DNA of 64,000 nucleotides from an uncultured Actinomycetota bacterium (GCA_963698965.1 CAVOSY010000037.1:55141-119140), one strand, 5' to 3'; counted from the stretch's first letter, positions 9,007-29,838 are shown. The notes: generated by a model not told the origin, from the letters alone. Program-made: numbers and translations.

Positions 9007-10038
9007 TCAGCGGCTGCCTAAGACTTCGCCTATATAAAGAGCAACCGCAGCGACATTAGCGATAGTTCCCGGATAGTCCATTCGCGTGGGTCCCAATACG
9101 CCCATGCCGCCGTACACCTTGCCTGAGCTGCCGTAGGTGGTGGTGACCACCGACGTGCCCGCCATTTGCTCCGCCTCGGTCTCGTGCCCGATGCGCACGG
9201 TGACTCTACCCGCTTCCTGCTGGGCCGCCAGCAGGCGCAGCACCACCACCTGCTCCTCGAGCGCCTCCATCACCGACCGCAGCGAACCGCCGAAGTCGGC
9301 GGTGTTGTGGGCCAGGTTTGCGGTGCCGCCCAGCAGCAGGCGTTCCTCGCTGTGGTCGACCAGTGTCTCCACCAGCACGGTGGCCGCCCTGCCGACCGCA
9401 TCGGCGAGCCCACCGCTGCCGTTGAGGTGCACGGCCAGGTCGGACACCGCAATGGACGCGGCGGCCAGCGGCTTACCCTCCAGCGCCTGGCCGAGGCGGT
9501 CGCGCAGTTGGGTCAGCTCATGCTCGTCGATGGCGTCGCCGAGCTCGACGATGCGCTGGTCGACGCGGCCCGAATCGGTGATCACGACAAGCAACAGGCG
9601 GGCCGGGGTCAGCGCCACCACCTCGAGGTGCCGCACACTCGACGTGGACAGCGTCGGGTACTGGACGATCGCGACCTGGCGGGTGAGCTGGGCCAACAGT
9701 CGTACGGCGCGGCGCAGCACATCATCGAGGTCGACGCCGGACTCCAGAAAGGACAGGATCGCCTTGCGCTCCGAGGATGACAGCGGCTTGATGTCGTCCA
9801 GCCGGTCGACGAACTCGCGGTAGCCCTTCTCGGTGGGCACCCGGCCCGAACTGGTGTGCGGCTGGGCGATGTACCCCTCGGCCTCCAACACCGCCATGTC
9901 ATTGCGCACGGTCGCGCTGGAAACGCCGAGATTGTGCCGCTCGACGAGTGTCTTCGAACCGATCGGCTCCTTGGTGGCCACGAAGTCGGCGACGATGGCA
10001 CGCAGCACCTCAAAACGACGGTCGTCGGCGCTACTCAA
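9007..10038 (-). CDS. hrcA: Heat-inducible transcription repressor HrcA
   Basis: [29 protein letters not shown] motifs; TTG start at 10038 gives 343 aa. Confidence 0.96.
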
Positions 10039-10184
10039 CTGGTCACCTGCCCTTCGCAGCGATTCTGCGTTCATTTTACGGTCATCAACAGGGCCGATAT
10101 CGATCGAGCGGTTGTTTGCGTGGCGGACAGCACGTTTACGACTAGCCTTTGCGATGTGATGCCGACGCCTCAGAGATCACCGCG

Positions 10185-10520
10185 ATGATCTTCAAGGGTG
10201 TGCGCGACGGCAGGCCGTACCCCGAACACGGCCTGTCGCATCGGCAGTGGGCGCAGATTCCGCCCCAGCAGATCCGGCTCGACGAGTTGGTTACCACCAC
10301 GACGGTGTTGGCGCTGGACCGTTTGCTGTCGGAGGACTCGACGTTCTACGGCGACCTCTTCCCGCACGCGGTCAGATGGAAGGGCATCGTCTATCTGGAG
10401 GACGGTTTGCACCGCGCCGTGCAGGCCGCGTTACGGAACAGGACGGTGCTGCACGCGCGCGTGTTCGATATGGACATGCCGTCCCCAGCTGCCGCGTGGG
10501 CCCAGTCGCAGCAGATCTAG
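10185..10520 (+). CDS. Conserved small mycobacterial protein (Rv2375-like) with ParB/Srx-like LEDGLHR motif
   Basis: MIFKGVRDGRPYPEHG...; conserved position divergent from hrcA. Confidence 0.8.
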   Translation: MIFKGVRDGRPYPEHGLSHRQWAQIPPQQIRLDELVTTTTVLALDRLLSEDSTFYGDLFPHAVRWKGIVYLEDGLHRAVQAALRNRTVLHARVFDMDMPSPAAAWAQSQQI

Positions 10521-10636
10521 TTGTCGCTGCGGGCGACGATTGACGACCATGGCAAGCCTTCGCCCGCCGCCAGCGCCGACCCACATCGACGCGCACCTGA
10601 CACACTCCTAACAGGGCGACTGGCACGATCGGGGTT

Positions 10637-10918
10637 GTGCGCGACGACGCGCACGTCCTGACTCGATTGGAGAACCACAGGACCGTATTACGAAGAACGG
10701 CAACGACTTTCGTTGCCACCGCCGCCTTGGCGGCATTGTCTGTCCTGACAATTTCCGGCGTCGCCAACGCGGATCCGGGAATCGGATGGGGCGCACCGGG
10801 TCCCGGGATCCTGCCAGGACCGGCGTCTGAACCTCTGACGGGCGCGGCACGCTCGCGCCCGCTTGCGTCCTCACGTGGCGCAAACACCGTCAGCAGGCAC
10901 GGGGGTGCAGTGCGTTGA
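10637..10918 (+). CDS. Possible short secreted Pro/Gly-rich protein
   Basis: Signal-peptide-like stretch TTFVATAALAALSVLTISGVANA-DP; start uncertain; may be a fragment. Confidence 0.3.
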   Translation: MRDDAHVLTRLENHRTVLRRTATTFVATAALAALSVLTISGVANADPGIGWGAPGPGILPGPASEPLTGAARSRPLASSRGANTVSRHGGAVR

Positions 10919-10967
10919 CCAACAGGAAGAAAGTGCCGTTGTCGTCTTCGAATGGGTTGGTGCTCAT
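10914..10967 (-). pseudogene. mbtH: mbtH 5' remnant (MSTNPFEDDNGTFFLLVN, then diverges and stops after 25 codons)
   Basis: Matches the MbtH N-terminus (MSTNPFDDDNG.FFVLVN); AGGAG RBS upstream. Confidence 0.8.
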
Positions 10968-11172
10968 CACTTCTCCTGATCGGCCGTTCGGCGGCGGTGA
11001 AGTCCACGCCGAGAATCCGGTCGGACAGCAGTCCGAGGCAGCTGAGGTTGGGGAATCCCGGACCCTGCGTCAGCCCGGACAGCCCGGGCAGGAACAGTTT
11101 TTGGCGCGACATCGGTGACGGCGAGGTCATGGTCGATGGCTTCCTGCAAGGTCTCGCCGGTCAACGGACCGC
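10960..11172 (-). pseudogene. mbtG: mbtG (lysine N6-monooxygenase) 3' remnant with +1 frameshift
   Basis: GPLTGETLQEAIDHDLAVTDVAPK / LFLPGLSGLTQGPGFPNLSCLGLLSDRILG read in two frames joined at an A5 run near 11098-11102; no upstream body. Confidence 0.82.
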
Positions 11173-11281
11173 GGTCGGCAAGATCGACAAGGCGATTGTG
11201 AATCAGCTACATCCTGATGGCTAGGGCGGTACCGCACTTCGACACTGGAGTTCTACGCGGAGATGCTTCAAAATATGAAGC

Positions 11282-11608
11282 ATGGCTTCGCCGCGTGTTG
11301 GCTCATCGGTACGGGGATCAGCCTCGGGTCGGCCGATCATGGTCGCCCTCGACGTTCTGGGTCGCCGCGGCGCGCTGCGTGTGCTCTGGGAGTTGCGCGA
11401 CGCTTCGCTGACGTTCCGTGCGCTCCAGGCGGCAGCCGATATGAATCCCGCCTCGCTCAACAAGCGAATCAAGGAGCTCCGTGCGCTGGAGATCATCGAC
11501 CACAGCGGCGACGGCTACCACCTGACGCAGCACGGGCGGTCACTGATGGCCGCCTTCGAACCACTACAAGCCTGGGCGGCGGCATGGGCGCGACAGGTGG
11601 ACCTCTAA
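11282..11608 (+). CDS. HxlR-family winged-helix regulator
   Basis: ALDVLGRRGALRVLWEL...TFRAL...LNKRIKEL...YHLTQHGRSL pattern. Confidence 0.85.
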   Translation: MASPRVGSSVRGSASGRPIMVALDVLGRRGALRVLWELRDASLTFRALQAAADMNPASLNKRIKELRALEIIDHSGDGYHLTQHGRSLMAAFEPLQAWAAAWARQVDL

Positions 11609-11854
11609 ACATCCGGACGACAACGTCGTTTCGCCGGTAAGGCGCCTCGTTCATAGCGCTTTACTTTTTGTAGCACGCCGGTGTATCGTTCCCTTCGACA
11701 GCGCTACAAAAACCATAGCGACTGCCCGCGCGGACCCCGTGTGCGAACGCCTCCGAAGAAGAGGCCGGCGCGGGCACTTCGCGAATCGTTGGTTGTACCG
11801 GTCACCAATCCCGTTGGCCGGACAGGAAATAGGAAATAAGAGAAAGAGTGAAAG

Positions 11855-12082
11855 ATGCCGTTCGTCAACGTGAAGGTCGTTGAAGGAGTGTTCTCCGCAA
11901 CGCAAAAGCAAGACATCGTGCGGAAGGTGACCGATGCCATGGTCGAGATCGAGGGCGAGAACATGCGTCCCGTCACATGGGTAGTGGTCGAGGAGGTCGC
12001 CAGCGGCGACTGGGGCATTGGCGGAACACCGTTGCACGCCGCTGACGTCAAGGCTCTCGCTGCAGGTCAACCGGTCGCCTAG
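11855..12082 (+). CDS. 4-oxalocrotonate tautomerase family protein
   Basis: 75 aa, N-terminal catalytic Pro (MPFVNVK), EEV...DWGIGG; purine-rich RBS. Confidence 0.9.
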   Translation: MPFVNVKVVEGVFSATQKQDIVRKVTDAMVEIEGENMRPVTWVVVEEVASGDWGIGGTPLHAADVKALAAGQPVA

Positions 12083-12094
12083 CGATTGCCGGCC

Positions 12095-12128
12095 CCGGCG
12101 AGACGACCCGACTGCATCGTCTCGCCGG
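12095..12128. terminator. Hairpin between convergent genes (probable bidirectional terminator)
   Basis: Perfect 12-bp stem CCGGCGAGACGA / TCGTCTCGCCGG with 10-nt loop. Confidence 0.6.
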
Positions 12129-12209
12129 AGGCTTCCATCCGGCCGCGTCAGCCAAACACGTTGTAAGCGTGTGTCTTACACGCGAGCAGGCGGGGCGACC
12201 GCGTGCAGA

Positions 12210-12599
12210 TCAACCTGTGACGGACGGCGGCGGCTGCGCTGCTGCGGACTCGGGGTCGATCTCGACGGCGTACGACGTGATCGCCATGATCTGCTCCCCC
12301 GTGTACTCGTAGATGTCGCAGCTGGCGACGGTGGTGACGCCGTTCGGACCGCTATAGCGCGCTAGGGTGTCGACGGCGACGACCCGCTCGTCGACCGCCA
12401 TCACGCACCTTTCGTAGGTCGTCGTGGTGTCTTGTAGGCCTTCCAGGGTCTCCCGGCAGGTCTGGCGCACTGCGTCGGCGCCCTCGAGGACCATGTATCC
12501 CACGACCGTCCAGCGCACATCTTTGGCTAGATGTGGCAGCGCCTCGTCAAACCGATGCTCGGAGAATGCGCGGCCGACGGCGCCGCGATCGAATGCCAT
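12210..12599 (-). CDS. SnoaL/NTF2-like protein
   Basis: LAKDVRWTVVG...LEGADAV, SCDIYEY...IMAITSY NTF2-like pattern. Confidence 0.8.
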   Translation of the reverse strand: MAFDRGAVGRAFSEHRFDEALPHLAKDVRWTVVGYMVLEGADAVRQTCRETLEGLQDTTTTYERCVMAVDERVVAVDTLARYSGPNGVTTVASCDIYEYTGEQIMAITSYAVEIDPESAAAQPPPSVTG

Positions 12600-20003: not shown

Positions 20004-20909
20004 TCAGCCGGTGAGGTCGGTGCGGGTTGCCTGTGCGGCCGTCCCACCGAACGACCGGGTGGACAGGCTGCCGCAGAGCACCGCACGCTGAAGACAGTCC
20101 CGACTCGGCAGGCCCTCGACCATCGCGCTGATGAAACCGGCGTCGAACGAATCGCCCGCGCCGGTGGTGTCGACGGCGTCGACCGGCGATGCCGGCTCCG
20201 TCATGGTCTCGGTATCCGTCCACAGGATCCCGCCGCTGGCACCGTTCTTCAGCGCCACCGTACAGCCAAGGCTCACAACGCGGCGCGCCGCATCGTCAAG
20301 GTCGAGCCCGCCCGTCAGCGCCAGCAGCTCAACGACGTTGGGGAACAACACGTCAGTGTGTTCCAGCAGGGGCAGCACACCGGTCCAGCGTTCCGCCGGA
20401 TCCCAGTTGGTGTCCAGCGAGCATGTCGCACCGCCGGCCCTGGCGCGGCGGAACACTTCCGGCAGGTGTGGCGCGAGCTTGGGCTGCAGGAACATCGACG
20501 CGCTGTGCACGTGACGCACCCGGGTCAGCAGGTCGGCGTCCACAACCTCGGGTCCGGTCGAGGCCAGGGTGCCCGGGTAAGTCAGTATTGCCCGGTCACC
20601 GGCAGACAGGACGACGGTGACCGCGGTGGAGACGTTGGGGTCGGTGCGAATCCACGAGGTGTCGACGCCGGAGGCGGCGAGTTCGTCGCGGACGAAGCGG
20701 CCGAATGCGTCATCGCCGACTGTCGCGGCCAGCGCGGTGGGAACGCCGAGCCGAGAAAGACCGCTGGCCACGATCGCAGCGGACCCACCCAGCACAAGGT
20801 CCGCGGCGTCGACCAATTTCTCAACCTGACCGAACCGCGGTTCGACGTCACCGCTGAGCACCAGGTCGGGATTGGCGTCGCCGATCACCAGTACCTCGGG
20901 CGCCCGCAT
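20004..20909 (-). CDS. PfkB-family carbohydrate kinase
   Basis: GGSAAIVA, VGDDAFG, VDTTGAGDSFDAG signature. Confidence 0.93.
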   Translation of the reverse strand: MRAPEVLVIGDANPDLVLSGDVEPRFGQVEKLVDAADLVLGGSAAIVASGLSRLGVPTALAATVGDDAFGRFVRDELAASGVDTSWIRTDPNVSTAVTVVLSAGDRAILTYPGTLASTGPEVVDADLLTRVRHVHSASMFLQPKLAPHLPEVFRRARAGGATCSLDTNWDPAERWTGVLPLLEHTDVLFPNVVELLALTGGLDLDDAARRVVSLGCTVALKNGASGGILWTDTETMTEPASPVDAVDTTGAGDSFDAGFISAMVEGLPSRDCLQRAVLCGSLSTRSFGGTAAQATRTDLTG

Positions 20910-21027
20910 AGCAATCCTTGTCGAAGAGTCGGTGACGACCGTACGCACACCGTCGTCCGCGCACAAACGCACGCCTTGGTCCGCACATTATTGAGCGATG
21001 TGCGCGAAATGCGCAATACTGACCACC

Positions 21028-22338
21028 ATGAAACCAACGATCGTGATCATCGGAGCAGGCAGTGTCGTGTTCACCCGCGAGCTGCTCGGCGACATCTTCT
21101 CGTTTCCCGAGCTGGCCGCGGTGCGCGTCGTCCTGCACGACATCGACGCCGAGCGGCTCGAGACGGCGGAAGCGATCACGCACGCGACCGCACGCGCGGC
21201 CCAGGCGCACCCCGAAGTCGTCACGGCCCTCGACCGACGCCGTGCACTGGACGGCGCCGACTACGTCATCAATGTGATCCAGGTGGGGATGCACGACGCC
21301 ACCGTGCGCGATTTCGACATCCCGGCCCGCCACGGCCTGCACCAGACCATCGGCGACACCATCGGCATCGGCGGAATCTTCCGGGGGCTGAGGACCTTTC
21401 CGGTGCTCGCCGGCATCGCCGCGGACATGGCGGAGGTCTGCCCGGACGCGTGGCTGCTGAACTACACCAACCCCATGGCCATGAACGTCACCTTCCTGCA
21501 CCACGTCGCACCGAAGCTGAAGGTGCTGGGTCTGTGCCACTCGGTGCACTGGACGATGGTCGGGTTGTGCGAGCTCATCGACGTTCCGTTCGACGATGTC
21601 CACTACTGGTCGGCCGGCGTCAATCACCAGGCCTGGGTGCTGCGATGGGAACGCCAGGGTGAGAACCTGTATCCGCTGTTGGACGAGCGCATCGCGGCGA
21701 ATCCGGAACTGCGACGACGGGTGCGCGTCGACATGTACCGCCGACTCGGGTATTACCCGACCGAAACCAGCGAGCACTCCAGCGAGTACGTCCCGTGGTA
21801 TCTGCACCACCCATCCGAGGTCGACCGGCTACGGCTCAATGTCGGCGAGTACGTCGGCATCAGCGAGGCCAACCTGGCCGAGTACCAGCAGGTCCGCGCC
21901 GACCTCGCTCACACGGACACCCTCGAAATCGATTCAGGATCAACCGAATACGCCCCGCAGGTAATCCACTCGCTAGAGACCGGCACCCTCCGCGTCATCG
22001 CGGCCAATGTGGCCAACGACGGGCTGATCACCAACCTGCCCGACGGTTTCGCGGTGGAAGTTCCGACCGTGCTCGACGCACTGGGCGCGCATCCGGTCAA
22101 GGTCGGTGACCTGCCGCCGCAGTGCGCCGCACTCAACCGCTGTTACATCGGCCCCGGGGAACTCGCCGTCCGAGCCGCCGTGGACGGCGATCCGCGCCTG
22201 GTGCCCGCGGCGGCCATGCTGGATCCCAACACGGCCGCGACCCTGACCGTCGACGAGATCTGGCAGCTGTGCGCCGAGTTGACGACCGCGCACGGTGATC
22301 TGCTGCCCGAGGCGCTCCGATCGCCCGCCCAGTCTTAG
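21028..22338 (+). CDS. GH4 NAD+/Mn2+-dependent alpha-galactosidase (MelA-like)
   Basis: IIGAGSVVF Rossmann motif, QTIGDTIGIGGIFR, NYTNPM, GLCHSV, GVNHQAW; probably leaderless. Confidence 0.9.
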   Translation: MKPTIVIIGAGSVVFTRELLGDIFSFPELAAVRVVLHDIDAERLETAEAITHATARAAQAHPEVVTALDRRRALDGADYVINVIQVGMHDATVRDFDIPARHGLHQTIGDTIGIGGIFRGLRTFPVLAGIAADMAEVCPDAWLLNYTNPMAMNVTFLHHVAPKLKVLGLCHSVHWTMVGLCELIDVPFDDVHYWSAGVNHQAWVLRWERQGENLYPLLDERIAANPELRRRVRVDMYRRLGYYPTETSEHSSEYVPWYLHHPSEVDRLRLNVGEYVGISEANLAEYQQVRADLAHTDTLEIDSGSTEYAPQVIHSLETGTLRVIAANVANDGLITNLPDGFAVEVPTVLDALGAHPVKVGDLPPQCAALNRCYIGPGELAVRAAVDGDPRLVPAAAMLDPNTAATLTVDEIWQLCAELTTAHGDLLPEALRSPAQS

Positions 22339-22424
22339 CGGGCACCCGTCGTGCGCACCGAAACGCTCAGTCATTTGTGCGCGTTCTTGCGCAATATGAA
22401 CAGCTGTGCGCATACTATCGACTC

Positions 22425-23294
22425 ATGACGGTGACAGGAACGGAGATCCAGTCCCAGCCCGCACTCTGGCGCCAGGCCGCCACCGGGCCGACCCCGGCGG
22501 CGCTGAGCGCGCGTGGTCAGCGGATGCTCGTAATCGGCTGCGGTACATCGGCATTCATCGCGATGGCGTATGCGGCTCAACGTGAGCAGGCCGGGTTCGG
22601 CGAGACGGACTGGGCCTACGCTTCGGAGATACCGGCGTCGCGTCACTATGACACCGTCCTGGCGATCACCCGGTCGGGCACGACCACTGAGATCATCGAC
22701 GCGGTGAAGCGGCTCGACGCCGGCACCAAGGTCGTGCTGACGGCGGTCGCAGGAGGTCCCCTTTCCGGGCTGGTCGACGAGGAGGTCGCGCTCGGTTTCG
22801 CCGACGAGGTGAGCATCGTGCAGACCCGCTTCCCGACCACGGCGCTGACACTGCTGCGCACGGCCCTCGGCCAGGATGTCGAGTCGGCGATCGCCGATGC
22901 AGAAACGGCGGTCCGGGACGCCCTACCGGTCGATCCAGCCACCTTCGACCACTTCGTCTACCTCGGCGCCGGCTGGACCGTCGGCCTGGCCCACGAGGCG
23001 GCGCTCAAGATGCGCGAGGCTGCGCAGGCCTGGAGTGAGTCGTACCCGGCGATGGACTACCGGCATGGGCCGATCGCGGTCGCCGGGCCGAAAAGCCTGG
23101 TATGGATGCTCGGCACGCCGCCGCCCGGCCTGGTCGAGCAAATCGAAGACACTGGCGCCGTCGTCGTGACCAGCGACCTGGACCCGTTGGCCCAACTGGT
23201 CCAGACCCAACGCAGTGCGGTGGCCGTCGCCGCCGCCCGCGGACTCGATCCCGACGAGCCCCGTGGCCTGACCCGGTCGGTGGTGTTGACGTGA
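22425..23294 (+). CDS. SIS-domain sugar-phosphate isomerase (AgaS/GlmS-like)
   Basis: EIQSQP, GCGTS, ITRSGTTTE, EAALKMRE, YRHGP; TACTAT -10 6 nt before ATG (leaderless). Confidence 0.88.
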   Translation: MTVTGTEIQSQPALWRQAATGPTPAALSARGQRMLVIGCGTSAFIAMAYAAQREQAGFGETDWAYASEIPASRHYDTVLAITRSGTTTEIIDAVKRLDAGTKVVLTAVAGGPLSGLVDEEVALGFADEVSIVQTRFPTTALTLLRTALGQDVESAIADAETAVRDALPVDPATFDHFVYLGAGWTVGLAHEAALKMREAAQAWSESYPAMDYRHGPIAVAGPKSLVWMLGTPPPGLVEQIEDTGAVVVTSDLDPLAQLVQTQRSAVAVAAARGLDPDEPRGLTRSVVLT

Positions 23295-23329
23295 TGCGAC
23301 CCCTCGCGGCGGCGATCAAAATTCGATTG

Positions 23330-23367
23330 CGCGAATGCGCACTGCATATTGCGCATTCGCGTATAAT
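23330..23367 (+). promoter_or_regulatory. Operator palindrome abutting TATAAT, upstream of sugar ABC operon
   Basis: CGCGAATGCGCA-N8-TGCGCATTCGCG perfect 12-bp inverted repeat followed directly by TATAAT. Confidence 0.7.
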
Positions 23368-23458
23368 CCTCGACCATACCGCGCGGGAGCTGCGCAGCTC
23401 CACACAACGCACCTCGGTGCCGTCCGCCCATCCGGCTCCATGTGAAGGAGTGTCGACT

Positions 23459-24745
23459 GTGACCCGCCCACGCCTCTTGCTCGTCCTGATCGCAGCCCTC
23501 ACCCTCGCGCTCGCCGCCTGCGGCGGCGGTGGCGGTGGGGGTTCTGCAGGTGGGCCCACCAAGATCACGGTCTGGAACGGCTGGACCGACGTGCAGGCCG
23601 AGAATTTCACCAAGCTGCTCGACCAGTACAACAAGGAGCATCCCGACGTCCAGGTGACCCAACTGGTCACCCCGAGCGACCAGGTGCTGCAGAAGGTGCT
23701 GACCGCGGTCCGCGGCAACAGCGCGCCCGATGTCGCGTACATGTTCGGCTCGTGGTCGCCGAACATCGCCGAGATACCTCAGGTCGTGAACATGGCGGAG
23801 TACGTCAAGCAACCCGACTGGAAGTGGGATGACTTCTACCCAGGTGAGCGGGCCGCTGCGACCGTCGGTGACAAAGTGGTCGGTGTGCCCGCACTCGTCG
23901 ACAACCTCGCGATCGTCTACAACAAGACGCTGTTCGAACAGGCCGGACTGACACCGCCGACGCCGGAGTGGACGTGGGATGACTTCCGTTCGGCCGCAGC
24001 CAAACTGACCGATCCCGCGAAGGGCCAGTACGGCTGGTCGATTCCCGCCGATGGCTCCGAGGACACCGTCTGGCACTACCTGCCGATGCTATGGGAGGCA
24101 GGCGGCGACCTCCTGACCCCGGACAACCAGCACGCGGCATTCAACTCCGAAGCCGGTGTCAAAGCGCTGACCACACTGCAGCAGATGGCCGTCACCGACA
24201 AGTCGCTCTACGTGGACACCACGAACCAGGAGTACTCGAAGCTGTTCACCGCCGGAAAGATCGGGATGCTGGTCACCGGGCCGTGGGATCTCGGCACCTT
24301 CAGCGACGTCGACTACGGCGTTCAGATCATGCCCACCTACACCGGATCGGCCGGCGGCCATCAGACCATCTCCGGGCCCGACAACTGGGTGGTGTTCGAC
24401 AACGGCGCACAACGCAAGCAGGCGGCCATCGACTTCGTGAAGTGGCTGACCGCAGCGCCGCAGGTCAAGTCGACCTCACTGACCACAGCGGATCTGCCTA
24501 CCCGCATTTCCGTCGGCGACGACTCAGCGTTCGTCGCAGAGCTCAACGAAAAGCAGCCCGGCTCAGAAGTTTTCGTGCACAATCTGGCCAACGCACAGAA
24601 GGCCAGGCCGACCGTCTCCCAGTATCCCAAGATCTCCGAGGCGCTGGGTCAGGCCATCGTGTCCGTTCTGCTCGGCAAAGCCCAACCCGCCGACGCGCTC
24701 AACACGGCGGCTCAGACGACGGATGCAGCGCTTGCCGAGAAGTAG
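23459..24745 (+). CDS. Sugar ABC transporter substrate-binding lipoprotein
   Basis: GAAGGAG RBS, GTG start, LAAC lipobox, CUT1 SBP motifs. Confidence 0.92.
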   Translation: MTRPRLLLVLIAALTLALAACGGGGGGGSAGGPTKITVWNGWTDVQAENFTKLLDQYNKEHPDVQVTQLVTPSDQVLQKVLTAVRGNSAPDVAYMFGSWSPNIAEIPQVVNMAEYVKQPDWKWDDFYPGERAAATVGDKVVGVPALVDNLAIVYNKTLFEQAGLTPPTPEWTWDDFRSAAAKLTDPAKGQYGWSIPADGSEDTVWHYLPMLWEAGGDLLTPDNQHAAFNSEAGVKALTTLQQMAVTDKSLYVDTTNQEYSKLFTAGKIGMLVTGPWDLGTFSDVDYGVQIMPTYTGSAGGHQTISGPDNWVVFDNGAQRKQAAIDFVKWLTAAPQVKSTSLTTADLPTRISVGDDSAFVAELNEKQPGSEVFVHNLANAQKARPTVSQYPKISEALGQAIVSVLLGKAQPADALNTAAQTTDAALAEK

Positions 24746-25652
24746 CGGGGCGGTCCGGACGCCGTCACCGCTGCGCCGGTTCCTGCGCTCGGACAATGCG
24801 AACGGGTGGGCGCTGACCGCTCCCGGCGTGATCCTGATCGGCATCTTCGGGCTGCTGCCGGTGCTGATGTCGCTACAGCTGTCCTTTCAGAAATCCGACC
24901 TGCTGACACCCGAGACACCGTGGGTCGGCACCGAGAATTACCGCAGACTCGCCGACGACCCGGTGTTCGCCGAGGCGATCAAGCACACGCTGATCTATAC
25001 CGCGCTGTTCGTCCCCGGCACCATGCTCGTCGGCCTGTTCATCGCGGCGGCGATGAACCGGTCGATTCGGTTCATCGCCTTCTACCGCACCACCGCGTAC
25101 ATCACGATGGCGGTGTCGACCATCTCGCAAGCCATCGCCTTCCTCTGGCTGACAAACCGCGATTTCGGCTTGATCAACGCGGCTCTCGGCGTGGTCGGAA
25201 TCTCGCCACAACCGTTCCTCGCCTCCCCCTCGCAAGCCTTGTACGTCATCGTGGCGATGACCATCTGGGGCTGGACCGGGTTCTCGGTGATCGTGTATCT
25301 GGCTGCGCTGCAAGGCGTCCCGCCCGAACTGCACGAAGCCGCCGCCATCGACGGTGCGAGCCGGTTCACCCGGTTCCGCACCATCACCGTGCCGCTGCTC
25401 GGGCCGGCCAACCTGTTCCTGATGGTGTGGTTGACCATCAATGCGTTGCAACTGTTCGACGTGGTCTACCAGACCACCCGCGGCGGACCCCTGCGCGCCA
25501 CCACCGTGATCGTCTACTACCTGTGGGACAGGGCCTTCGTCCAGTTCGACGCCGGCTACGCCGCGGCAATGGCCTACGTCCTCTTCGTGGTCATCGTCGT
25601 CGTCACCGCGGTGCAGTTCCGCATCGCCCGGAGATACGCGTATCACCCATGA
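24723..25652 (+). CDS. Carbohydrate ABC transporter permease 1 (start uncertain)
   Basis: EAAAIDGA EAA loop; multiple TM helices. Confidence 0.9.
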   Translation: MQRLPRSSGAVRTPSPLRRFLRSDNANGWALTAPGVILIGIFGLLPVLMSLQLSFQKSDLLTPETPWVGTENYRRLADDPVFAEAIKHTLIYTALFVPGTMLVGLFIAAAMNRSIRFIAFYRTTAYITMAVSTISQAIAFLWLTNRDFGLINAALGVVGISPQPFLASPSQALYVIVAMTIWGWTGFSVIVYLAALQGVPPELHEAAAIDGASRFTRFRTITVPLLGPANLFLMVWLTINALQLFDVVYQTTRGGPLRATTVIVYYLWDRAFVQFDAGYAAAMAYVLFVVIVVVTAVQFRIARRYAYHP

Positions 25653-26551
25653 TCGGCGACACCATGGCGGCCTCCGACCTGACCAACTCCGCGCCAGAAG
25701 CGCCCACGCCGAAGCGTCTCCGACTGCCGTTCAGCCCGTGGCATCTGGTGCTCATCCCGCTGTCGTTTCTGCTTGTGCTTCCACTGGTGTGGATGCTGGT
25801 CACGTCACTGCAGACGACGAGTGAGTCCAACCGTTTCCCGCCGGTCCTCCCCCAACACCCGCGGCTACAGAACTACCCGGACGCCTGGGCCACGGCGCCG
25901 TTCGGTCATTTCTTCCTCAACAGCGCGCTCGTCACGCTGGTGGTGCTGATGAGCAACCTCGTGCTGTGCAGCCTGGCCGGGTACGCATTCGCCCGAATTC
26001 GGTTCCTGGGCCGCGGAATTCTGTTTGCGACCCTGATGGCCACCCTGATGGTGCCGTTCCAGGTCAGCATGATCCCGATCTTCCTGATCGTGAAATGGTT
26101 CGGCGACAACGTGTGGTTCGGGCTGGGTGTCGACCACATCGGCGCGCTGATGTTGCCGAATCTGGCCACCGTGTTCGGCATCTTCTTCCTGCGGCAGTTC
26201 TTTCTGACCGTCCCGGTGGAACTCGAGGACGCCGCCCGCGTCGACGGGACATCGCGACTGGGCGTGCTCGTGAAAATCGTGCTGCCGCTGTCGTTGCCTG
26301 CGTTGTCGACGCTGGCGGCGCTGACCATTCTGACCTCATGGAACGACTTCCTGTGGCCGCTCATCGCCGTCACCTCGCCCGACCAGATGACGGTTCCGTT
26401 GGGGCTCAGCTACTTTCAGGGCGCTCACTTCACCAACTGGCCGCTGCTCATGGCGGCGAATGTGATGAGCATATTGCCCATGCTGCTCGTATTCATCGTG
26501 GCACAGCGGTTTTTCGTCCAATCGGTAGCCAGCACCGGACTGAAGGGCTGA
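25649..26551 (+). CDS. Carbohydrate ABC transporter permease 2
   Basis: ATGA overlap; ELEDAARVDG EAA loop, SWNDFLWPL. Confidence 0.92.
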   Translation: MIGDTMAASDLTNSAPEAPTPKRLRLPFSPWHLVLIPLSFLLVLPLVWMLVTSLQTTSESNRFPPVLPQHPRLQNYPDAWATAPFGHFFLNSALVTLVVLMSNLVLCSLAGYAFARIRFLGRGILFATLMATLMVPFQVSMIPIFLIVKWFGDNVWFGLGVDHIGALMLPNLATVFGIFFLRQFFLTVPVELEDAARVDGTSRLGVLVKIVLPLSLPALSTLAALTILTSWNDFLWPLIAVTSPDQMTVPLGLSYFQGAHFTNWPLLMAANVMSILPMLLVFIVAQRFFVQSVASTGLKG

Positions 26552-26582
26552 GCGTGACACGGCAATCGGAAGCAGGGGCAGC

Positions 26583-27677
26583 TTGGCAGAGGTAGAGTTC
26601 TGCGGCGTCACACGCCGCTACGCAGGAAATGTGGTCGCGCTCAACAATCTCGACCTCAAGGTCGACGATGGCGAATTCCTGATCCTGGTCGGCCCGTCAG
26701 GCTGCGGCAAGAGCACGGCGCTGCGCCTGCTAGCGGGTTTGGACAAACCCACATCGGGCGAGATCAAGATCGGCGGTGACTCGGTGAACCGGCTCAGCCC
26801 CGGCGAGCGCGATATCGCGATGGTGTTCCAGAACTATGCCCTATACCCACACATGAGCGTCTACGCGAACCTGGCGTACGGACTGCGTCAGCGCAGGACG
26901 CCGCGGGCCGAAGTCGAACAACGGGTCCGTGAGACCGCGCGCCTGCTCGACATCGGCGAACTGCTCGACCGCAAACCTGGCCAGCTCTCCGGTGGCCAGA
27001 GACAGCGAGTCGCGATGGGCCGTGCGCTGGTTCGTCGGCCGCGGGCTTTCCTGCTCGACGAGCCGCTGTCGAATCTCGACGCGAAGCTGCGCACCCAGGT
27101 TCGCGGCGACCTCAAGCGACTGCATCGCAAGGTGCCGGTCACCTCCATTTACGTGACGCACGACCAGGTGGAGGCGATGACACTGGGCGATCGGCTGTGC
27201 GTGATGGCCGCCGGCGAAGTGCAGCAGATCGGAACCCCCGATGAGATCTACAACCGGCCGGCCAACACGTTCGTCGCGGCATTCATGGGCAGCCCCCCAA
27301 TGAACTTGCTGCCGGGTTCCGTGCGCCATGGCGTACTGCACGTCGGAGAAGCGCCGCTCGCCACCGTGCACGCGCCCGACGGCCCGGCCACCGTCGGCAT
27401 CCGGCCCGAGCATCTGCTCGTGTGCCCGCCCTCGGTGCACGGCACGGTGCCTGCCCAGGTCGACTTTTGCGAACCGCTCGGCAGCCACGTGCTGGTCAAC
27501 GCGCTCGTCGAGGCGTCCGACAACGCGCCGACCAGTGTTGTGGTGCAGGCGCCGCCCGACACCGTGTTGGACGTCGGCACCTCTGTCGCCCTGAAATTCA
27601 ACCCGGAGAAGACCTACCTGTTCGATGCCGTGACGGGTAGTGCACGGGTGACCCGCGAGCGGATCTCGCTGGCATGA
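26583..27677 (+). CDS. Sugar ABC transporter ATP-binding subunit (MalK/UgpC-like)
   Basis: [30 protein letters not shown]. Confidence 0.95.
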
Positions 27678-27700
27678 CGCCACGCGTTCGGCGGCGGCGC

Positions 27701-28471
27701 CTACCCCTCTTTCACCGGGGCGACGATCACTTCGATGTGCGCGGACTCGGCGGCCTTACGCGTCGCGGGATCGATGCCCGAGTCGGTGACCAGTGTGTCG
27801 ATGGCGTCGGGCCCGCAGATCCTGGCGAACGTCACCTTTCCGATCTTGGAGCTGTCCGCAATCACGATGGTGCGCTTGGCCTGCCGGATGAAGGCCAGAT
27901 CGGTGTGCGCCTCCATTTCGTCGTGCGTGGTACACCCGTCAGTCACAGTGAAGCCGTCGGTGCCGACGAACGCGATGTCGAGGTGGTACTGGGCGATCAT
28001 CGCTTCGGCCGCCGGCCCCACCAGCTCGTAGGACGCGTGCCGCGCGTTGCCCCCGACCACGACGAGCCGGATGTTCGGCCGCGCAACGAGTTCCGCGGCG
28101 ATGTTGAGGGCATTGGTGACGACGGTGAGATCGCGGCGATCGGCCAGCGCGCGTACCACCTCGGTCGCCGTCGTGCCGCCCGTCATGCCCACCACTTCGC
28201 CGTCACGGACGAGCTTGGCGGCGTGCAGGCCGATCGCGCGCTTCTGCCGCAACTGCCTGGACGCCTTGTACCGGATGGGCATTTCCAGACCGGCAGGCTT
28301 GGGGAGCGCGCCGCCGTGCGTGCGGCGCAGCAACCCCTGTTCGTGCAGGGTCTGCAGATCGCGACGGATGGTGGCGGCCGAGACGTCGAACTCCTCGGCC
28401 AAGCGGGCGACGTCGACACTGCCGTGCTCGACCACGCGATCGAGGATCTCGGCGAGTCGTTCTGCTTTCAC
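27701..28471 (-). CDS. DeoR/GlpR (AgaR-like) transcriptional regulator
   Basis: SAATIRRDLQTL, RRTHGGA, GGTTATEV, VVTNALNIA; GTG start at 28471. Confidence 0.93.
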   Translation of the reverse strand: MKAERLAEILDRVVEHGSVDVARLAEEFDVSAATIRRDLQTLHEQGLLRRTHGGALPKPAGLEMPIRYKASRQLRQKRAIGLHAAKLVRDGEVVGMTGGTTATEVVRALADRRDLTVVTNALNIAAELVARPNIRLVVVGGNARHASYELVGPAAEAMIAQYHLDIAFVGTDGFTVTDGCTTHDEMEAHTDLAFIRQAKRTIVIADSSKIGKVTFARICGPDAIDTLVTDSGIDPATRKAAESAHIEVIVAPVKEG

Positions 28472-28484
28472 GCACGAAGTGTAC

Positions 28485-28510
28485 GTGTTCGTTTTCGCCA
28501 AAACGAACAC
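28485..28510. promoter_or_regulatory. Perfect inverted repeat in the deoR/kbaZ divergent promoter
   Basis: GTGTTCGTTTT-CGCC-AAAACGAACAC. Confidence 0.65.
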
Positions 28511-28542
28511 ATATGCGCAACAATTCGAAAGGAGGCGGCCGC

Positions 28543-29838
28543 TTGAGTCATCCCCTCGATCCCGTCGTGCGGTCCGGCACAGCCGGCATCGCGTCGGTGT
28601 GCTCGGCGCACCCCTTCGTCATCGAGGCGGCCCTCGAGCAGGCAAAAACCGGCGGTGAGGTCGTTTTGATCGAGGCCACCTCCAACCAGGTGGACCAGTT
28701 CGGTGGCTACACCGGTATGCGCCCGGCCGATTTCCGCAAGCTCGTCGAACGCATCGCGCACCACGTCGGGTTCCCGGTCGACCGCATCGTGCTCGGCGGA
28801 GACCACCTCGGTCCCAACCGATGGCGTTCGCTGCCTGCCGAAACGGCCATGTCGCACGCCGATGAACTGGTGCGAAGCTATGTCTTGGCCGGATACACCA
28901 AACTCCATCTGGATTGCAGCTATCCCTGCGCCGACGACATCGGACCTCTCACCGACGATGTCGTCGCCGCCCGAGCAGCCCGCATGCTCGGGGCCGCCGA
29001 AGCAGAGGCGGCGCGGATCGGGCTGGCCGGGCGGTTGCGCTATGTCATCGGAACCGAGGTGCCCGCCCCCGGCGGTTCGACGCACGAAATCGACGAACTC
29101 GTGCCGACCACGGCCGATAGTGCGCGAAACACGCTGCGGGCCCACCGTCTTGCTTTCGATCGTGCGGGCCTGGGCCATGCGTGGCCTCAGGTGATGGCGC
29201 TTGTTGTGCAGCCGGGGGTCGAGTTCGATCACCTGCACGTCGTCAACTACCGGGCCGGCGCCGCCGGTTCCCTGCGCGACGTGCTTGACGACGAGCCGTC
29301 GATGACGTTCGAGGCGCACTCCACCGACTACCAAACACCCAGTGCCCTAACGTCTTTGGTCTCAGATGGCTGGCGGGTGCTCAAGGTCGGCCCGGGATTG
29401 ACCTTCGCGATGCGCGAGGCGCTGTTCGCGCTGGTCTCCGTCGAGAACGAGCTTGTGGCGCCGGCGGAGCGCTCCGATCTGCCGGCCATCGTGGAGCGCA
29501 GGATGCTGGCCGCGCCCGAACACTGGGAACGCTATTGCCCCGGCAATGCCGACGAGCAGTACATCGCCCGCCGATACAGCTACAGCGACCGGATGCGTTA
29601 CTACTGGGCCGACCGAGAGATCGAAACCGCTGTGCACACCTTGCTCGACAATCTGCGAGCGCGCGTCGTGCCGGAGCCGGTGCTCAGCGCGTTTCTGCCC
29701 GAGCAGTACGACCGGATCCGCGCGGGTGTGCTCTCGGCCGACCCGAAAGACCTTGTCGTCGACCGCATCCGAGGCGTCCTTCGCGTCTACGCCGAAGCCT
29801 GCGGACAGGACAAGGTAGCCTGTCGCGCCCTTATCTGA
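28543..29838 (+). CDS. GatZ/KbaZ-family protein (probable tagatose-6-phosphate 4-epimerase)
   Basis: GAAAGGAGG RBS; SVCSAHP, IEATSNQVDQFGGYTGM, LGGDHLGP, FEAHSTDYQ, KVGPGLTF, YSYSDRMRYYW. Confidence 0.92.
   Translation: MSHPLDPVVRSGTAGIASVCSAHPFVIEAALEQAKTGGEVVLIEATSNQVDQFGGYTGMRPADFRKLVERIAHHVGFPVDRIVLGGDHLGPNRWRSLPAETAMSHADELVRSYVLAGYTKLHLDCSYPCADDIGPLTDDVVAARAARMLGAAEAEAARIGLAGRLRYVIGTEVPAPGGSTHEIDELVPTTADSARNTLRAHRLAFDRAGLGHAWPQVMALVVQPGVEFDHLHVVNYRAGAAGSLRDVLDDEPSMTFEAHSTDYQTPSALTSLVSDGWRVLKVGPGLTFAMREALFALVSVENELVAPAERSDLPAIVERRMLAAPEHWERYCPGNADEQYIARRYSYSDRMRYYWADREIETAVHTLLDNLRARVVPEPVLSAFLPEQYDRIRAGVLSADPKDLVVDRIRGVLRVYAEACGQDKVACRALI

Follow-up and report, generated by a model that had tools for sequence, protein, structure and literature searches.

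A nine-gene island in a mycobacterial genome that may catabolize alpha-linked galactosamine through tagatose-6-phosphate

By profile searches and reading of open reading frames, we identified nine intact genes at positions 20004-29838 of the 64-kb stretch of Mycobacterium DNA analysed here (the window). The island is preceded by sirA, cysH and che1 (CbiX) and followed by cysA, cysW, cysT and subI, which bears out the position between che1 and cysA given in a preliminary description of this DNA. The gene set named there (PfkB, GH4, SIS, a complete CUT1 importer, DeoR and GatZ/KbaZ) is likewise present in full, and the locus is, as claimed, self-contained, fed by an ABC importer and free of a phosphotransferase system (PTS). 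dN/dS is 0.05-0.27 across the nine genes, and together they probably form a single sugar-catabolic pathway. The features are as follows.

20004..20972, minus strand: PfkB-family sugar kinase (PF00294, E=4e-47; probable start ATG at 20909, 301 aa), proposed galactosamine 6-kinase
20998..22338, plus strand: cytoplasmic GH4 NAD/Mn-dependent alpha-glycosidase (PF02056 and PF11975; probable leaderless start at 21028), proposed exo-alpha-galactosaminidase
22377..23294, plus strand: double-SIS protein (probable start at 22425, 289 aa as in homologues), proposed galactosamine-6-phosphate (GalN-6-P) deaminase/isomerase giving tagatose-6-phosphate (Tag-6-P) and NH3
23330..23367, no strand: palindromic operator-like site GCGAATGCGCA-N8-TGCGCATTCGC, read from the sequence, located 5' of the SBP gene, where it overlaps a TATAAT box
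23459..24745, plus strand: CUT1 solute-binding lipoprotein (SBP; PF01547 and PF13416; lipobox LAAC; N-terminus VTRPRLLLVLIAALTLALAAC)
24723..25652, plus strand: ABC permease 1, UgpA/MalF-like (PF00528; NF007852, 142 bits)
25649..26551, plus strand: ABC permease 2, UgpE/MalG-like (PF00528; start ATG at 25649 overlaps the permease 1 stop)
26583..27677, plus strand: MalK/UgpC-type ABC ATPase with TOBE domain (PF00005, PF08402 and PF17912; NF008653, 453 bits)
27701..28510, minus strand: DeoR-family repressor, HTH_DeoR plus DeoRC sensor domain (PF00455, E=6e-50, and PF08220)
28513..29838, plus strand: GatZ/KbaZ-family protein (PF08013, E=4e-174; probable start TTG at 28543 after GGAGG), proposed Tag-6-P/fructose-6-phosphate (Fru-6-P) 4-epimerase

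The CUT1 importer comprises an SBP_bac_1 binding protein with a lipobox, acidic in its mature form (pI 4.6), two BPD_transp_1 permeases and a MalK-type ATPase with a TOBE domain. ATGCGCA half-sites related to the palindrome occur at 21008, 22352-22412 and 28512. The DeoR gene is the most conserved of the island, with 91-98% amino-acid identity to its counterparts in three related loci (L005, L006 and L087). Its product belongs to the DeoR family by Pfam and shares just 44% identity with the AgaR-like regulator in a sister locus (L090).

The PfkB protein belongs to the ribokinase/IolC/fructokinase branch of its family (133, 116 and 112 bits, respectively). Because its scores fall on this ribokinase-type branch rather than the 1-PFK/LacC branch, we propose that it acts on a free sugar. 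Candidate identities that we rejected are a phosphosugar kinase of the LacC/FruK/PfkB type, such as Tag-6-P kinase (TIGR03168, 63.7 bits against a cut-off of 216.4), tagatose kinase (NF049991, 94.7 bits against 420) and the fructoselysine 6-kinase FrlD (NF007321, 79 bits against 247). In related cassettes the gene co-varies with GH4, ABC and GH114 modules (for example, L096). We know of no PfkB-family galactosamine kinase, and a literature search for ‘galactosamine kinase’ returned no match.

The GH4 protein has the N- and C-terminal domains of its family and, in an alignment to GH4 structures, the N-terminal NAD-binding motif IGAGS together with GLCHS and NH. It scores 557.3 bits against the alpha-galactosidase subfamily model NF011657 (cut-off 486), and this placement above an NCBI curated cut-off speaks against a role in galactosamine release. 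Of 38 GH4 homologues (at least 56% identity), 29 lie within 10 kb of a SIS gene. The gene context, including the joining of GH4 to AgaS and AgaK-like genes in two loci (L090 and L091), points to galactosamine rather than alpha-galactosides. We are aware of no GH4 enzyme with demonstrated activity on galactosaminides.

Among PDB and NCBIfam entries, the closest relatives of the SIS protein are GlmD, NagB-II and the isomerase domain of GlmS, and it retains the equivalents of GlmS K485, E488 and H504. It falls below the curated cut-offs of both the AgaS and GlmD models and does not match FrlB (NF008481). The preliminary description was right about a SIS gene and imprecise in likening it to AgaS (TIGR02815, 35.7 bits against a cut-off of 529.2). 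Nearly all of the approximately 70 related loci tie this SIS family to a KbaY-like class II aldolase, and the remainder tie it to KbaZ; this linkage suggests that the pathway intermediate is likely Tag-6-P. The aldolase-linked loci often carry a second PfkB of the phosphosugar-kinase branch, which in one case (L029) reaches 208.6 bits on TIGR03168.

Several lines of evidence make galactosamine a more likely substrate than galactose. Among these, the nearest characterised relatives of the SIS protein are glucosamine-6-phosphate deaminases (GlmD and NagB-II) and the GlmS isomerase domain, and sister loci with the GH4 and ABC module carry AgaS, a NagK/AgaK-like kinase, KbaZ and KbaY. We found the same module of GH4, SBP, permeases and ATPase (73-84% identity) in two Mycobacterium genomes (G031 and G164), joined to KbaZ, AgaS (TIGR02815, 452 bits), a NagK/AgaK-like kinase, an EamA permease, an AgaR-like regulator and KbaY. 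The sister Mycobacterium loci L090 and L091 have an AgaK-like kinase and a true AgaS in place of the PfkB and SIS pair.

Family membership of KbaZ is well defined (PF08013, 579.8 bits; TIGR02810, 592.2 bits against a cut-off of 568.8). In Escherichia coli GatZ, H88, H257, E171 and D87 have been proposed as metal ligands or catalytic residues, with K279, E44 and C20 specific to the family, and E. coli GatZ and KbaZ show epimerase activity in vivo as F6P/T6P 4-epimerases (PMC11907403). A phmmer alignment to 2fiq shows all seven residues to be identical in the island protein, and kbaZ is under purifying selection (dN/dS 0.16-0.18). As the preliminary description stated for the locus, a KbaY/GatY aldolase is missing: we detected no remnant in the window and no orthologue in the whole 7.7-Mb genome. 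The aldolases that the genome does encode are a housekeeping Fba and a divergent 252-amino-acid family member, approximately 30% identical to KbaY-like proteins and situated in an unrelated cluster. Since the strain lacks the usual KbaY, and since GatZ/KbaZ proteins are F6P/T6P 4-epimerases whose proposed catalytic residues are conserved here, the pathway likely leaves through KbaZ as a Tag-6-P/Fru-6-P 4-epimerase. The epimerase exit suggested earlier also gains from the independent recurrence of aldolase-less cassettes and from the presence of the GH4 family in all 25 KbaZ-bearing genomes of a 401-genome Actinomycetes sample.

The aldolase-less state is one recurrent variant in mycobacteria, and neither the norm nor a defining design, because kbaY is present in 7 of the 12 complete KbaZ-bearing cassettes from mycobacteria. 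In these seven relatives kbaY lies immediately 3' of kbaZ, and at the one junction that we read (L005) kbaY begins with an ATG that overlaps the stop codon of kbaZ. Such pairing in most mycobacterial cassettes also fits KbaZ acting mainly as an aldolase helper. The island shares its aldolase-less state with L087, which occupies the same chromosomal slot, and with L006, L014 and L089; among mycobacterial-type cassettes, those without kbaY have at least three independent origins, and none carries kbaY without kbaZ. Identity to L087 is 77% for KbaZ and 87-98% for the other genes, a difference that points to a separate history for the right end of the island.

Beyond mycobacteria, a distant actinomycete family has the same aldolase-less nine-gene repertoire at approximately 40% identity. 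KbaZ adjoins GH4 in 14 of its genomes, and none of the four loci that we fetched has an aldolase within 20 kb. A Micromonospora locus, which also favours an aminosugar as substrate, combines KbaZ, AgaS, a kinase and EamA, and the aldolase is absent from its 21 kb. Other Actinomycetes have the cassette with an aldolase and without KbaZ.

Related cassettes also suggest where the sugar comes from. GH114, Ega3 and PelA-type endo-alpha-1,4-galactosaminidases act on galactosaminogalactan, Pel and polygalactosamine (PMC12054363). In L041, L049, L058/L071 (a single site), L072-L077 and L096, the cassette has a GH114 gene no more than 10 kb away; the one GH114 protein that we checked has a signal peptide. 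In the 401-genome sample, GH114 lies within 10 kb of SIS in 7 genomes (approximately 0.27 expected), and at the genome level the odds ratio for co-occurrence with GH114 is 2.8 for SIS, 3.5 for GH4 and 5.8 for KbaZ, statistics that make no correction for phylogeny. GH109-fold GFO/IDH/MocA genes lie beside SIS in L033, L039 and L049. These GH114-adjacent cassettes identify the probable polymer source. For mycobacteria the link to the polymer is indirect, since GH114 is found neither in the island's genome nor in the 14 sampled genomes of its genus. Our literature search returned no description of catabolism downstream of GH114-type galactosaminidases.

We modestly favour a reading in which the island is inducible, is repressed by DeoR and serves to scavenge oligosaccharides of alpha-linked galactosamine, with an epimerase exit. 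All substrates and activities in this model are inferred from gene content, family membership, conserved residues, purifying selection and neighbourhood associations. Other microbes' secreted GH114-type enzymes would cut soluble products from deacetylated galactosaminogalactan, Pel or polygalactosamine, and the lipoprotein SBP and CUT1 transporter would import these oligosaccharides. Cytoplasmic GH4 would then release alpha-linked galactosamine residues, the PfkB kinase would convert galactosamine to GalN-6-P, and the GlmD-like double-SIS enzyme would convert GalN-6-P to Tag-6-P and ammonia. KbaZ would epimerise Tag-6-P at C4 to Fru-6-P, which would enter glycolysis. Most mycobacterial relatives, having kbaY, could also cleave tagatose-1,6-bisphosphate, and the island's strain would have the epimerase exit only. 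This model keeps the order of kinase, isomerase and epimerase proposed in the preliminary description, along with its Tag-6-P intermediate and likely KbaZ exit, and replaces galactose as the input.

More tentatively, and as something short of probable, the island may represent, in mycobacteria, a pathway that is widespread among actinobacteria yet undescribed and that feeds on cationic oligosaccharides of alpha-1,4-linked galactosamine, derived from the galactosaminogalactan of fungi or from a bacterial matrix of the Pel type. If so, it would comprise three activities not reported before, namely exo-alpha-galactosaminidase in a GH4 enzyme, galactosamine 6-kinase in a PfkB-family protein and GalN-6-P deaminase in a short GlmD-like protein, and KbaZ, as a physiological Tag-6-P 4-epimerase, would make the aldolase dispensable.

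Galactose itself, the substrate originally proposed, now appears unlikely. GH4 would then be a true alpha-galactosidase for melibiose- or raffinose-type sugars, PfkB would produce galactose-6-phosphate (Gal-6-P), SIS would be a plain Gal-6-P/Tag-6-P isomerase and KbaZ would again yield Fru-6-P. The GH4 subfamily score agrees with this route, simple aldose-ketose isomerisation is within reach of the SIS fold and the epimerase evidence for KbaZ holds equally (PMC11907403). However, the SIS protein is of the GlmS/GlmD aminosugar-6-phosphate deaminase type, AgaK-like kinase and AgaS displace PfkB and SIS in sister loci with the same GH4 and ABC module, and GH114 and GH109-like genes neighbour related cassettes. 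A second galactose route also appears unneeded: galK, galT and galE are absent from the locus, as first noted, but galT-galK lies elsewhere in the genome (contig C26:281279-283293). Moreover, the Gal-6-P isomerases known to us are LacAB, of the RpiB family, and not SIS proteins.

We regard as similarly improbable a crippled or bypassed tagatose-bisphosphate route, in which KbaZ is the non-catalytic helper of a lost KbaY and Tag-6-P is phosphorylated by the host PfkA/PfkB and poorly cleaved by Fba, or in which the island is decaying. The kbaZ-kbaY junctions of the seven relatives, the other Actinomycetes cassettes with an aldolase and no KbaZ, and the divergent right end are consistent with such a loss. 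Set against it are the nine intact genes under purifying selection, the further aldolase-less loci (including four of the distant family), the absence of mycobacterial cassettes with kbaY alone and the in vivo activity of the E. coli proteins. A different substrate class is more doubtful still: Amadori or fructosamine compounds handled by an FrlD-like kinase and FrlB-like deglycase, or free tagatose or galactitol handled by a tagatose kinase and epimerase as in Agrobacterium, with unrelated roles for GH4 and SIS. Some SIS homologues are labelled ‘FrlB-like’ in source annotations, PfkB weakly matches both kinase models, and 5ci5, which ranks second among the PDB relatives of the SBP, was reportedly solved with tagatose bound. 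Yet all of these kinase scores are far under curated cut-offs, and a deglycase acting on tagatosamine-6-phosphate would yield Gal-6-P rather than Tag-6-P. The tight linkage of GH4, SIS and KbaZ or aldolase, and the GH114 and AgaS/AgaK-like associations, would also go unexplained.

Our preferred galactosamine reading has partial counterparts in known systems. Like MelA-type alpha-galactosidases, the island GH4 exceeds the NF011657 cut-off, but its partners are aminosugar and Tag-6-P enzymes rather than melibiose/raffinose transport or Leloir genes. Secreted GH114 enzymes occur beside the same GH4, PfkB, SIS and ABC genes in other Actinomycetes, whereas the island's Mycobacterium would rely on oligosaccharides freed by other organisms.

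The Aga pathway for N-acetylgalactosamine and galactosamine (agaS-kbaY-kbaZ in E. coli; AgaP/AgaK/AgaS/AgaZ/AgaY in Shewanella; PMC12118421) shares the proposed deamination and isomerisation of GalN-6-P to Tag-6-P, a KbaZ/AgaZ-family protein, a DeoR-type regulator and, in Shewanella, a kinase instead of a PTS. In contrast, the island pairs a CUT1 ABC importer with a cytoplasmic GH4, which argues for oligosaccharide input. Its kinase is of the PfkB family rather than AgaK, its deaminase candidate is a short GlmD-like double-SIS protein rather than AgaS, and it has no deacetylase, with no amidohydrolase (AgaA/NagA) among its nine genes. Lacking KbaY, the strain would have to exit by epimerisation rather than aldol cleavage.

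Galactitol, altritol and tagatose catabolism in Agrobacterium tumefaciens C58 and Sinorhizobium meliloti, as cited in PMC11907403, proceeds through a tagatose kinase and Tag-6-P 4-epimerase. This route likewise has a GatZ/KbaZ homologue that stands alone, alongside a PfkB-family kinase and an ABC importer, and an aldolase-free exit from Tag-6-P to Fru-6-P; the catalytic residues proposed for E. coli GatZ are conserved in the island KbaZ. It differs from the island, where PfkB is no tagatose kinase equivalog (95 bits against 420), genes for GH4 and SIS accompany it and Tag-6-P would arise from GalN-6-P through a SIS deaminase rather than from free tagatose.

The window belongs to contig C37 of a 7.7-Mb environmental Mycobacterium genome. 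Between sirA-cysH-che1(CbiX) and cysA-cysW-cysT-subI we identified nine intact genes, exactly those listed in the preliminary description:

20004-20972, minus strand: PfkB kinase (likelier start 20909)
20998-22338, plus strand: GH4 glycosidase (likelier start 21028)
22377-23294, plus strand: SIS protein, a GlmD-like double-SIS protein (likelier start 22425)
23459-24745, plus strand: CUT1 solute-binding lipoprotein (SBP), lipobox LAAC
24723-25652 and 25649-26551, plus strand: two permeases
26583-27677, plus strand: MalK-type ATPase
27701-28510, minus strand: DeoR regulator
28513-29838, plus strand: GatZ/KbaZ protein (KbaZ; likelier start 28543)

For the PfkB, GH4, SIS and KbaZ genes, the lengths of homologues in L087, a near-identical island, suggest the shorter starts given above. 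A Rossmann motif stands right at the N-terminus of the GH4 protein, which is therefore predicted to be cytoplasmic. No island signal was seen in base composition.

Every functional assignment made here derives from family membership and gene neighborhoods. We propose that the SBP, an acidic lipoprotein (pI 4.6), would bind an alpha-linked galactosamine (GalN) oligosaccharide, which would be imported and cleaved by GH4. PfkB would then make GalN-6-P, the SIS enzyme would convert GalN-6-P to tagatose-6-P (Tag-6-P) and ammonia, and KbaZ would convert Tag-6-P to fructose-6-P (Fru-6-P). We modestly favor this chain as a whole. The proposed roles of the SIS enzyme, the kinase and KbaZ are likely, while the chances for the proposed GH4 specificity are even.

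The SIS protein falls outside the AgaS family (35.7 bits against a cut-off of 529). It most resembles archaeal GlmD, the GlcN-6-P deaminases of Thermotoga and Shewanella and the isomerase domain of GlmS, and it conserves the equivalents of GlmS K485, E488 and H504. GlmS Lys603 proved uninformative for discriminating deaminases from isomerases, being R in the SIS clade and K or Q in two aligned AgaS proteins. An assignment as a NagS-type GlcNAc-6-P dehydratase was rejected because the SIS protein is a GlmS-type double-SIS protein; NagS is a MurQ-related single-SIS protein (PMC12680351).

PfkB scores 83.6-133 bits on the ribokinase, IolC, fructokinase and tagatose-kinase models, all under cut-off, and just 63.7 bits on TIGR03168, the phosphosugar-kinase subfamily. 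The low TIGR03168 score relative to the ribokinase-type models points to a kinase of free sugars and away from a Tag-6-P kinase. The GH4 protein scores above the cut-off of the alpha-galactosidase subfamily model (557 bits against 486), and a search of the PDB with SBP returned generic CUT1 relatives only. To our knowledge, the substrates known for the GH4 family are confined to glucosides, galactosides, uronides and the 6-phosphates of these. A 2-amino sugar should be chemically acceptable to GH4, since NAD/Mn oxidation-elimination needs only a C2 proton and a C3 hydroxyl.

Three independent lines of evidence favor galactosamine over galactose as the substrate. One is the lineage of the SIS protein, which is that of aminosugar-6-phosphate deaminases. 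Another is a non-orthologous displacement in two Mycobacterium genomes (G031 and G164), in which a GH4-SBP-permease-permease-ATPase module 73-84% identical to the window's is joined to KbaZ, KbaY, a true AgaS (TIGR02815, 452 bits), a NagK/AgaK-like kinase, an EamA permease and an AgaR-like regulator. This gene set is the Shewanella-type GalN(Ac) set summarised in PMC12118421. The sister island in these genomes (L090:5100-16700 and L091) is without PfkB and without a GlmD-like SIS protein. Micromonospora cremea encodes KbaZ-AgaS-kinase-EamA, with no aldolase inside the 21-kb locus.

The remaining line comes from GH114 genes that adjoin the cassette (related PfkB/GH4/SIS/ABC/DeoR gene sets with KbaZ and/or a KbaY-like aldolase) at L041, L049, L058/L071 (one site), L072-L077 and L096. 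GH114 proteins are endo-alpha-1,4-galactosaminidases that act on deacetylated galactosaminogalactan, Pel and polygalactosamine (PMC12054363). The single GH114 protein checked has a signal peptide. Across a class sample of 401 Actinomycetes genomes, GH114 and SIS genes lie no more than 10 kb apart in 7 genomes against about 0.27 expected, kinship ignored. At the genome level, the odds ratio with GH114 is 2.8 for SIS, 3.5 for GH4 and 5.8 for KbaZ (kinship likewise ignored). No deacetylase is encoded within the locus, consistent with GH114 products being free amines. GH114 is absent from the window's genome and from the 14 sampled genomes of its genus, so this Mycobacterium would depend on fungi or other bacteria to release the oligosaccharides. 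GFO/IDH/MocA proteins adjoin SIS in L033, L039 and L049 (L039 without GH4); NAD-dependent GH109 alpha-N-acetylgalactosaminidases have this fold.

The orthologous cassette of other Actinomycetes comprises PfkB, GH4, SIS, ABC, DeoR and a KbaY-like aldolase, without KbaZ. A second PfkB of the phosphosugar-kinase type (208.6 bits on TIGR03168) often adjoins the aldolase, and many Streptomyces retain DeoR-SIS-aldolase only. Because the invariant partner of the SIS family is a tagatose-bisphosphate-type exit, we assign Tag-6-P as the SIS product, and it is very likely the pathway intermediate. Of the 38 GH4 homologues in the class sample (at least 56% identity), 29 have the SIS gene within 10 kb, and this GH4 family is present in 25 of 25 KbaZ genomes (Fisher P = 5e-24, kinship ignored).

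Many non-mycobacterial cassettes also carry an Amidohydro_2 (PF04909) gene conserved beside SIS (L036:8823-9905, L021, L073, L078-L084), which is absent from the window. A right-handed beta-helix protein of about 555 aa with a weak PF13229 match (L014:10962-12629, L012:~10855-12500) is encoded between the SIS and SBP genes or nearby, and also near the L041, L054 and L093 cassettes. It has no relative in the PDB and may provide the system with a further polysaccharide-cleaving enzyme.

A distant actinomycete family (f41) has a DeoR-SIS-SBP-permease-permease-GH4-PfkB-KbaZ operon about 40% identical to the window's genes (L098:2000-13900, also L097, L099 and L100). No aldolase was found within 20 kb in 4 of 4 loci fetched, and in 14 genomes of the family 1-2 kb separate KbaZ from the GH4 gene. 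GH114 occurs elsewhere in the genome in 17 of the 19 sampled genomes with this type of operon. In L098, a 671-aa protein with a choice-of-anchor Q domain follows the operon. Given these relatives outside Mycobacterium, the order of kinase, SIS enzyme and epimerase put forward in the preliminary description is an old and recurrent design.

When one genome per species was scanned, the cassette turned up in about a dozen Mycobacterium/Mycolicibacterium genomes, among them M. komossense, M. litorale and Mycolicibacterium sp. CH28. Of 301 genomes sampled evenly across the family, the window's own was the only one with a close SIS orthologue, which makes the island rare. The L087 island occupies exactly the same che1/cysA slot; its KbaZ (10001-11287) is 77% identical to the window's and the other eight genes are 87-98% identical. 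This divergence of KbaZ, together with a kbaZ dS against L005 and L006 about twice that of other genes, indicates that the right end of the island was exchanged by recombination. PfkB in L006 (~8113, from a MAG) aligns across just 166 codons and L007 (also a MAG) has no full-length GH4 match, which could reflect decay or an assembly problem.

KbaZ scores above the cut-off of the agaZ/gatZ equivalog model (592 bits against 568.8) and, aligned to E. coli GatZ (2fiq), keeps C20, E44, D87, H88, E171, H257 and K279. Palur et al. proposed these seven residues for Zn-dependent retro-aldol/aldol C4 epimerisation, and showed that E. coli GatZ and KbaZ turn Fru-6-P into Tag-6-P in vivo (PMC11907403); the paper also cites earlier A. 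tumefaciens and S. meliloti epimerases. A KbaY-like aldolase lies directly 3' of kbaZ in seven complete relatives (L005, L007, L008, L010, L011, L013 and L016) and is absent from the window, L006, L014, L087 and L089. The loci without kbaY occupy three separate positions on the KbaZ tree, and kbaY without kbaZ was found in no mycobacterial cassette. All nine island genes have dN/dS values of 0.05-0.27, similar to the flanking sulfur genes; KbaZ stands at 0.16-0.18, also when two kbaY-less genomes are compared. The tree positions, the dN/dS values and the lack of mycobacterial cassettes with kbaY alone indicate that KbaZ has a KbaY-independent function.

It is instead conceivable, though improbable, that the island holds a crippled aldolase route in which KbaZ is merely a helper. 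The position of kbaY directly after kbaZ in most mycobacterial relatives fits such a route (in L005, the only junction read, the kbaZ stop overlaps the kbaY ATG), and selection on kbaZ and the recurrent aldolase-less cassettes weaken it. KbaZ is encoded once in the genome, and there are two genes of the class II aldolase family: the housekeeping Fba and a divergent 252-aa gene (C35:1473-2231) that shares only about 30% identity with KbaY-like aldolases from related cassettes. The latter, considered as a hidden KbaY, aligns strongly with the KbaY/GatY models over its first 133 residues only and has PdxA-like and four-carbon acid sugar kinase-like neighbors; it was rejected as a partner. The surrounding region (C35:1-9200, L004), with the PdxA-like dehydrogenase and the kinase-like gene, holds a GntR regulator and two ~600-aa proteins with UGSC-family domains. 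No kbaY remnant was found 3' of kbaZ in the window or L006 (tblastn, E=10), and the previously noted lack of KbaY therefore extends to the whole genome.

The preliminary description had instead envisaged a non-Leloir galactose route through Gal-6-P. That substrate draws mainly on the GH4 alpha-galactosidase subfamily score, and we consider it unlikely because the SIS lineage, the AgaS/AgaK-like displacement and the GH114 neighbors indicate galactosamine. The reported lack of galK and galT holds at the locus and fails genome-wide: the two genes are adjacent at C26:281279-283293 (Leloir pathway), so a second galactose route is unnecessary to explain the locus. An Amadori or free-tagatose substrate is very unlikely, as both miss family cut-offs and leave the linkage pattern unexplained. 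For the FrlB/FrlD Amadori system, scores are far under cut-offs and the chemistry gives no Tag-6-P.

Putative regulatory sites accompany the genes of the proposed galactosamine pathway. ATGCGCA/TGCGCA half-sites abut -10-like hexamers before the GH4, SIS and SBP genes (21000-21030, 22345-22425 and 23330-23367) and within the deoR/kbaZ gap (28505-28520). TGCGCAATACT sits 7 nt ahead of the GH4 ATG at 21028, TGCGCATACTAT precedes the SIS ATG at 22425, and GCGAATGCGCA-N8-TGCGCATTCGCGTATAAT precedes the SBP gene (within 23330-23367). The half-sites are probably the DeoR operator, with GH4 and SIS probably having leaderless starts, and their layout fits a single DeoR-controlled regulon. The deoR 5' end also contains a perfect 26-nt palindrome, GTGTTCGTTTTCGCCAAAACGAACAC (28485-28510), unrelated to the TGCGCA motif.

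Endo-galactosaminidases that degrade galactosaminogalactan and Pel biofilm polymers are known. If our reading is correct, the island would fill a gap by accounting for bacterial import and use of GalN oligosaccharides, a process undescribed in the literature searched, and would add a new GH4 specificity and a new PfkB kinase specificity. For mycobacteria, it would represent a rare accessory nutrient island in a variable che1/cysA slot, suggesting cross-feeding in soil on fungal or bacterial matrix sugars. Repeated kbaY loss with kbaZ kept, together with complete KbaZ-GH4 co-occurrence in Actinomycetes, would then be genetic evidence that the physiological role of GatZ/KbaZ is that of an epimerase, not an aldolase helper. 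Our literature search returned no report of GalN-oligosaccharide catabolism, of a GalN kinase or of a galactosaminidase in GH4. The ABC/GH4-fed entry, a PfkB kinase acting on GalN, a GlmD-like deaminase acting on GalN-6-P and an epimerase-only exit for galactosamine thus appear undescribed in the literature searched, alongside an Aga pathway, GatZ/KbaZ epimerases and GH114 enzymes that are all already known.
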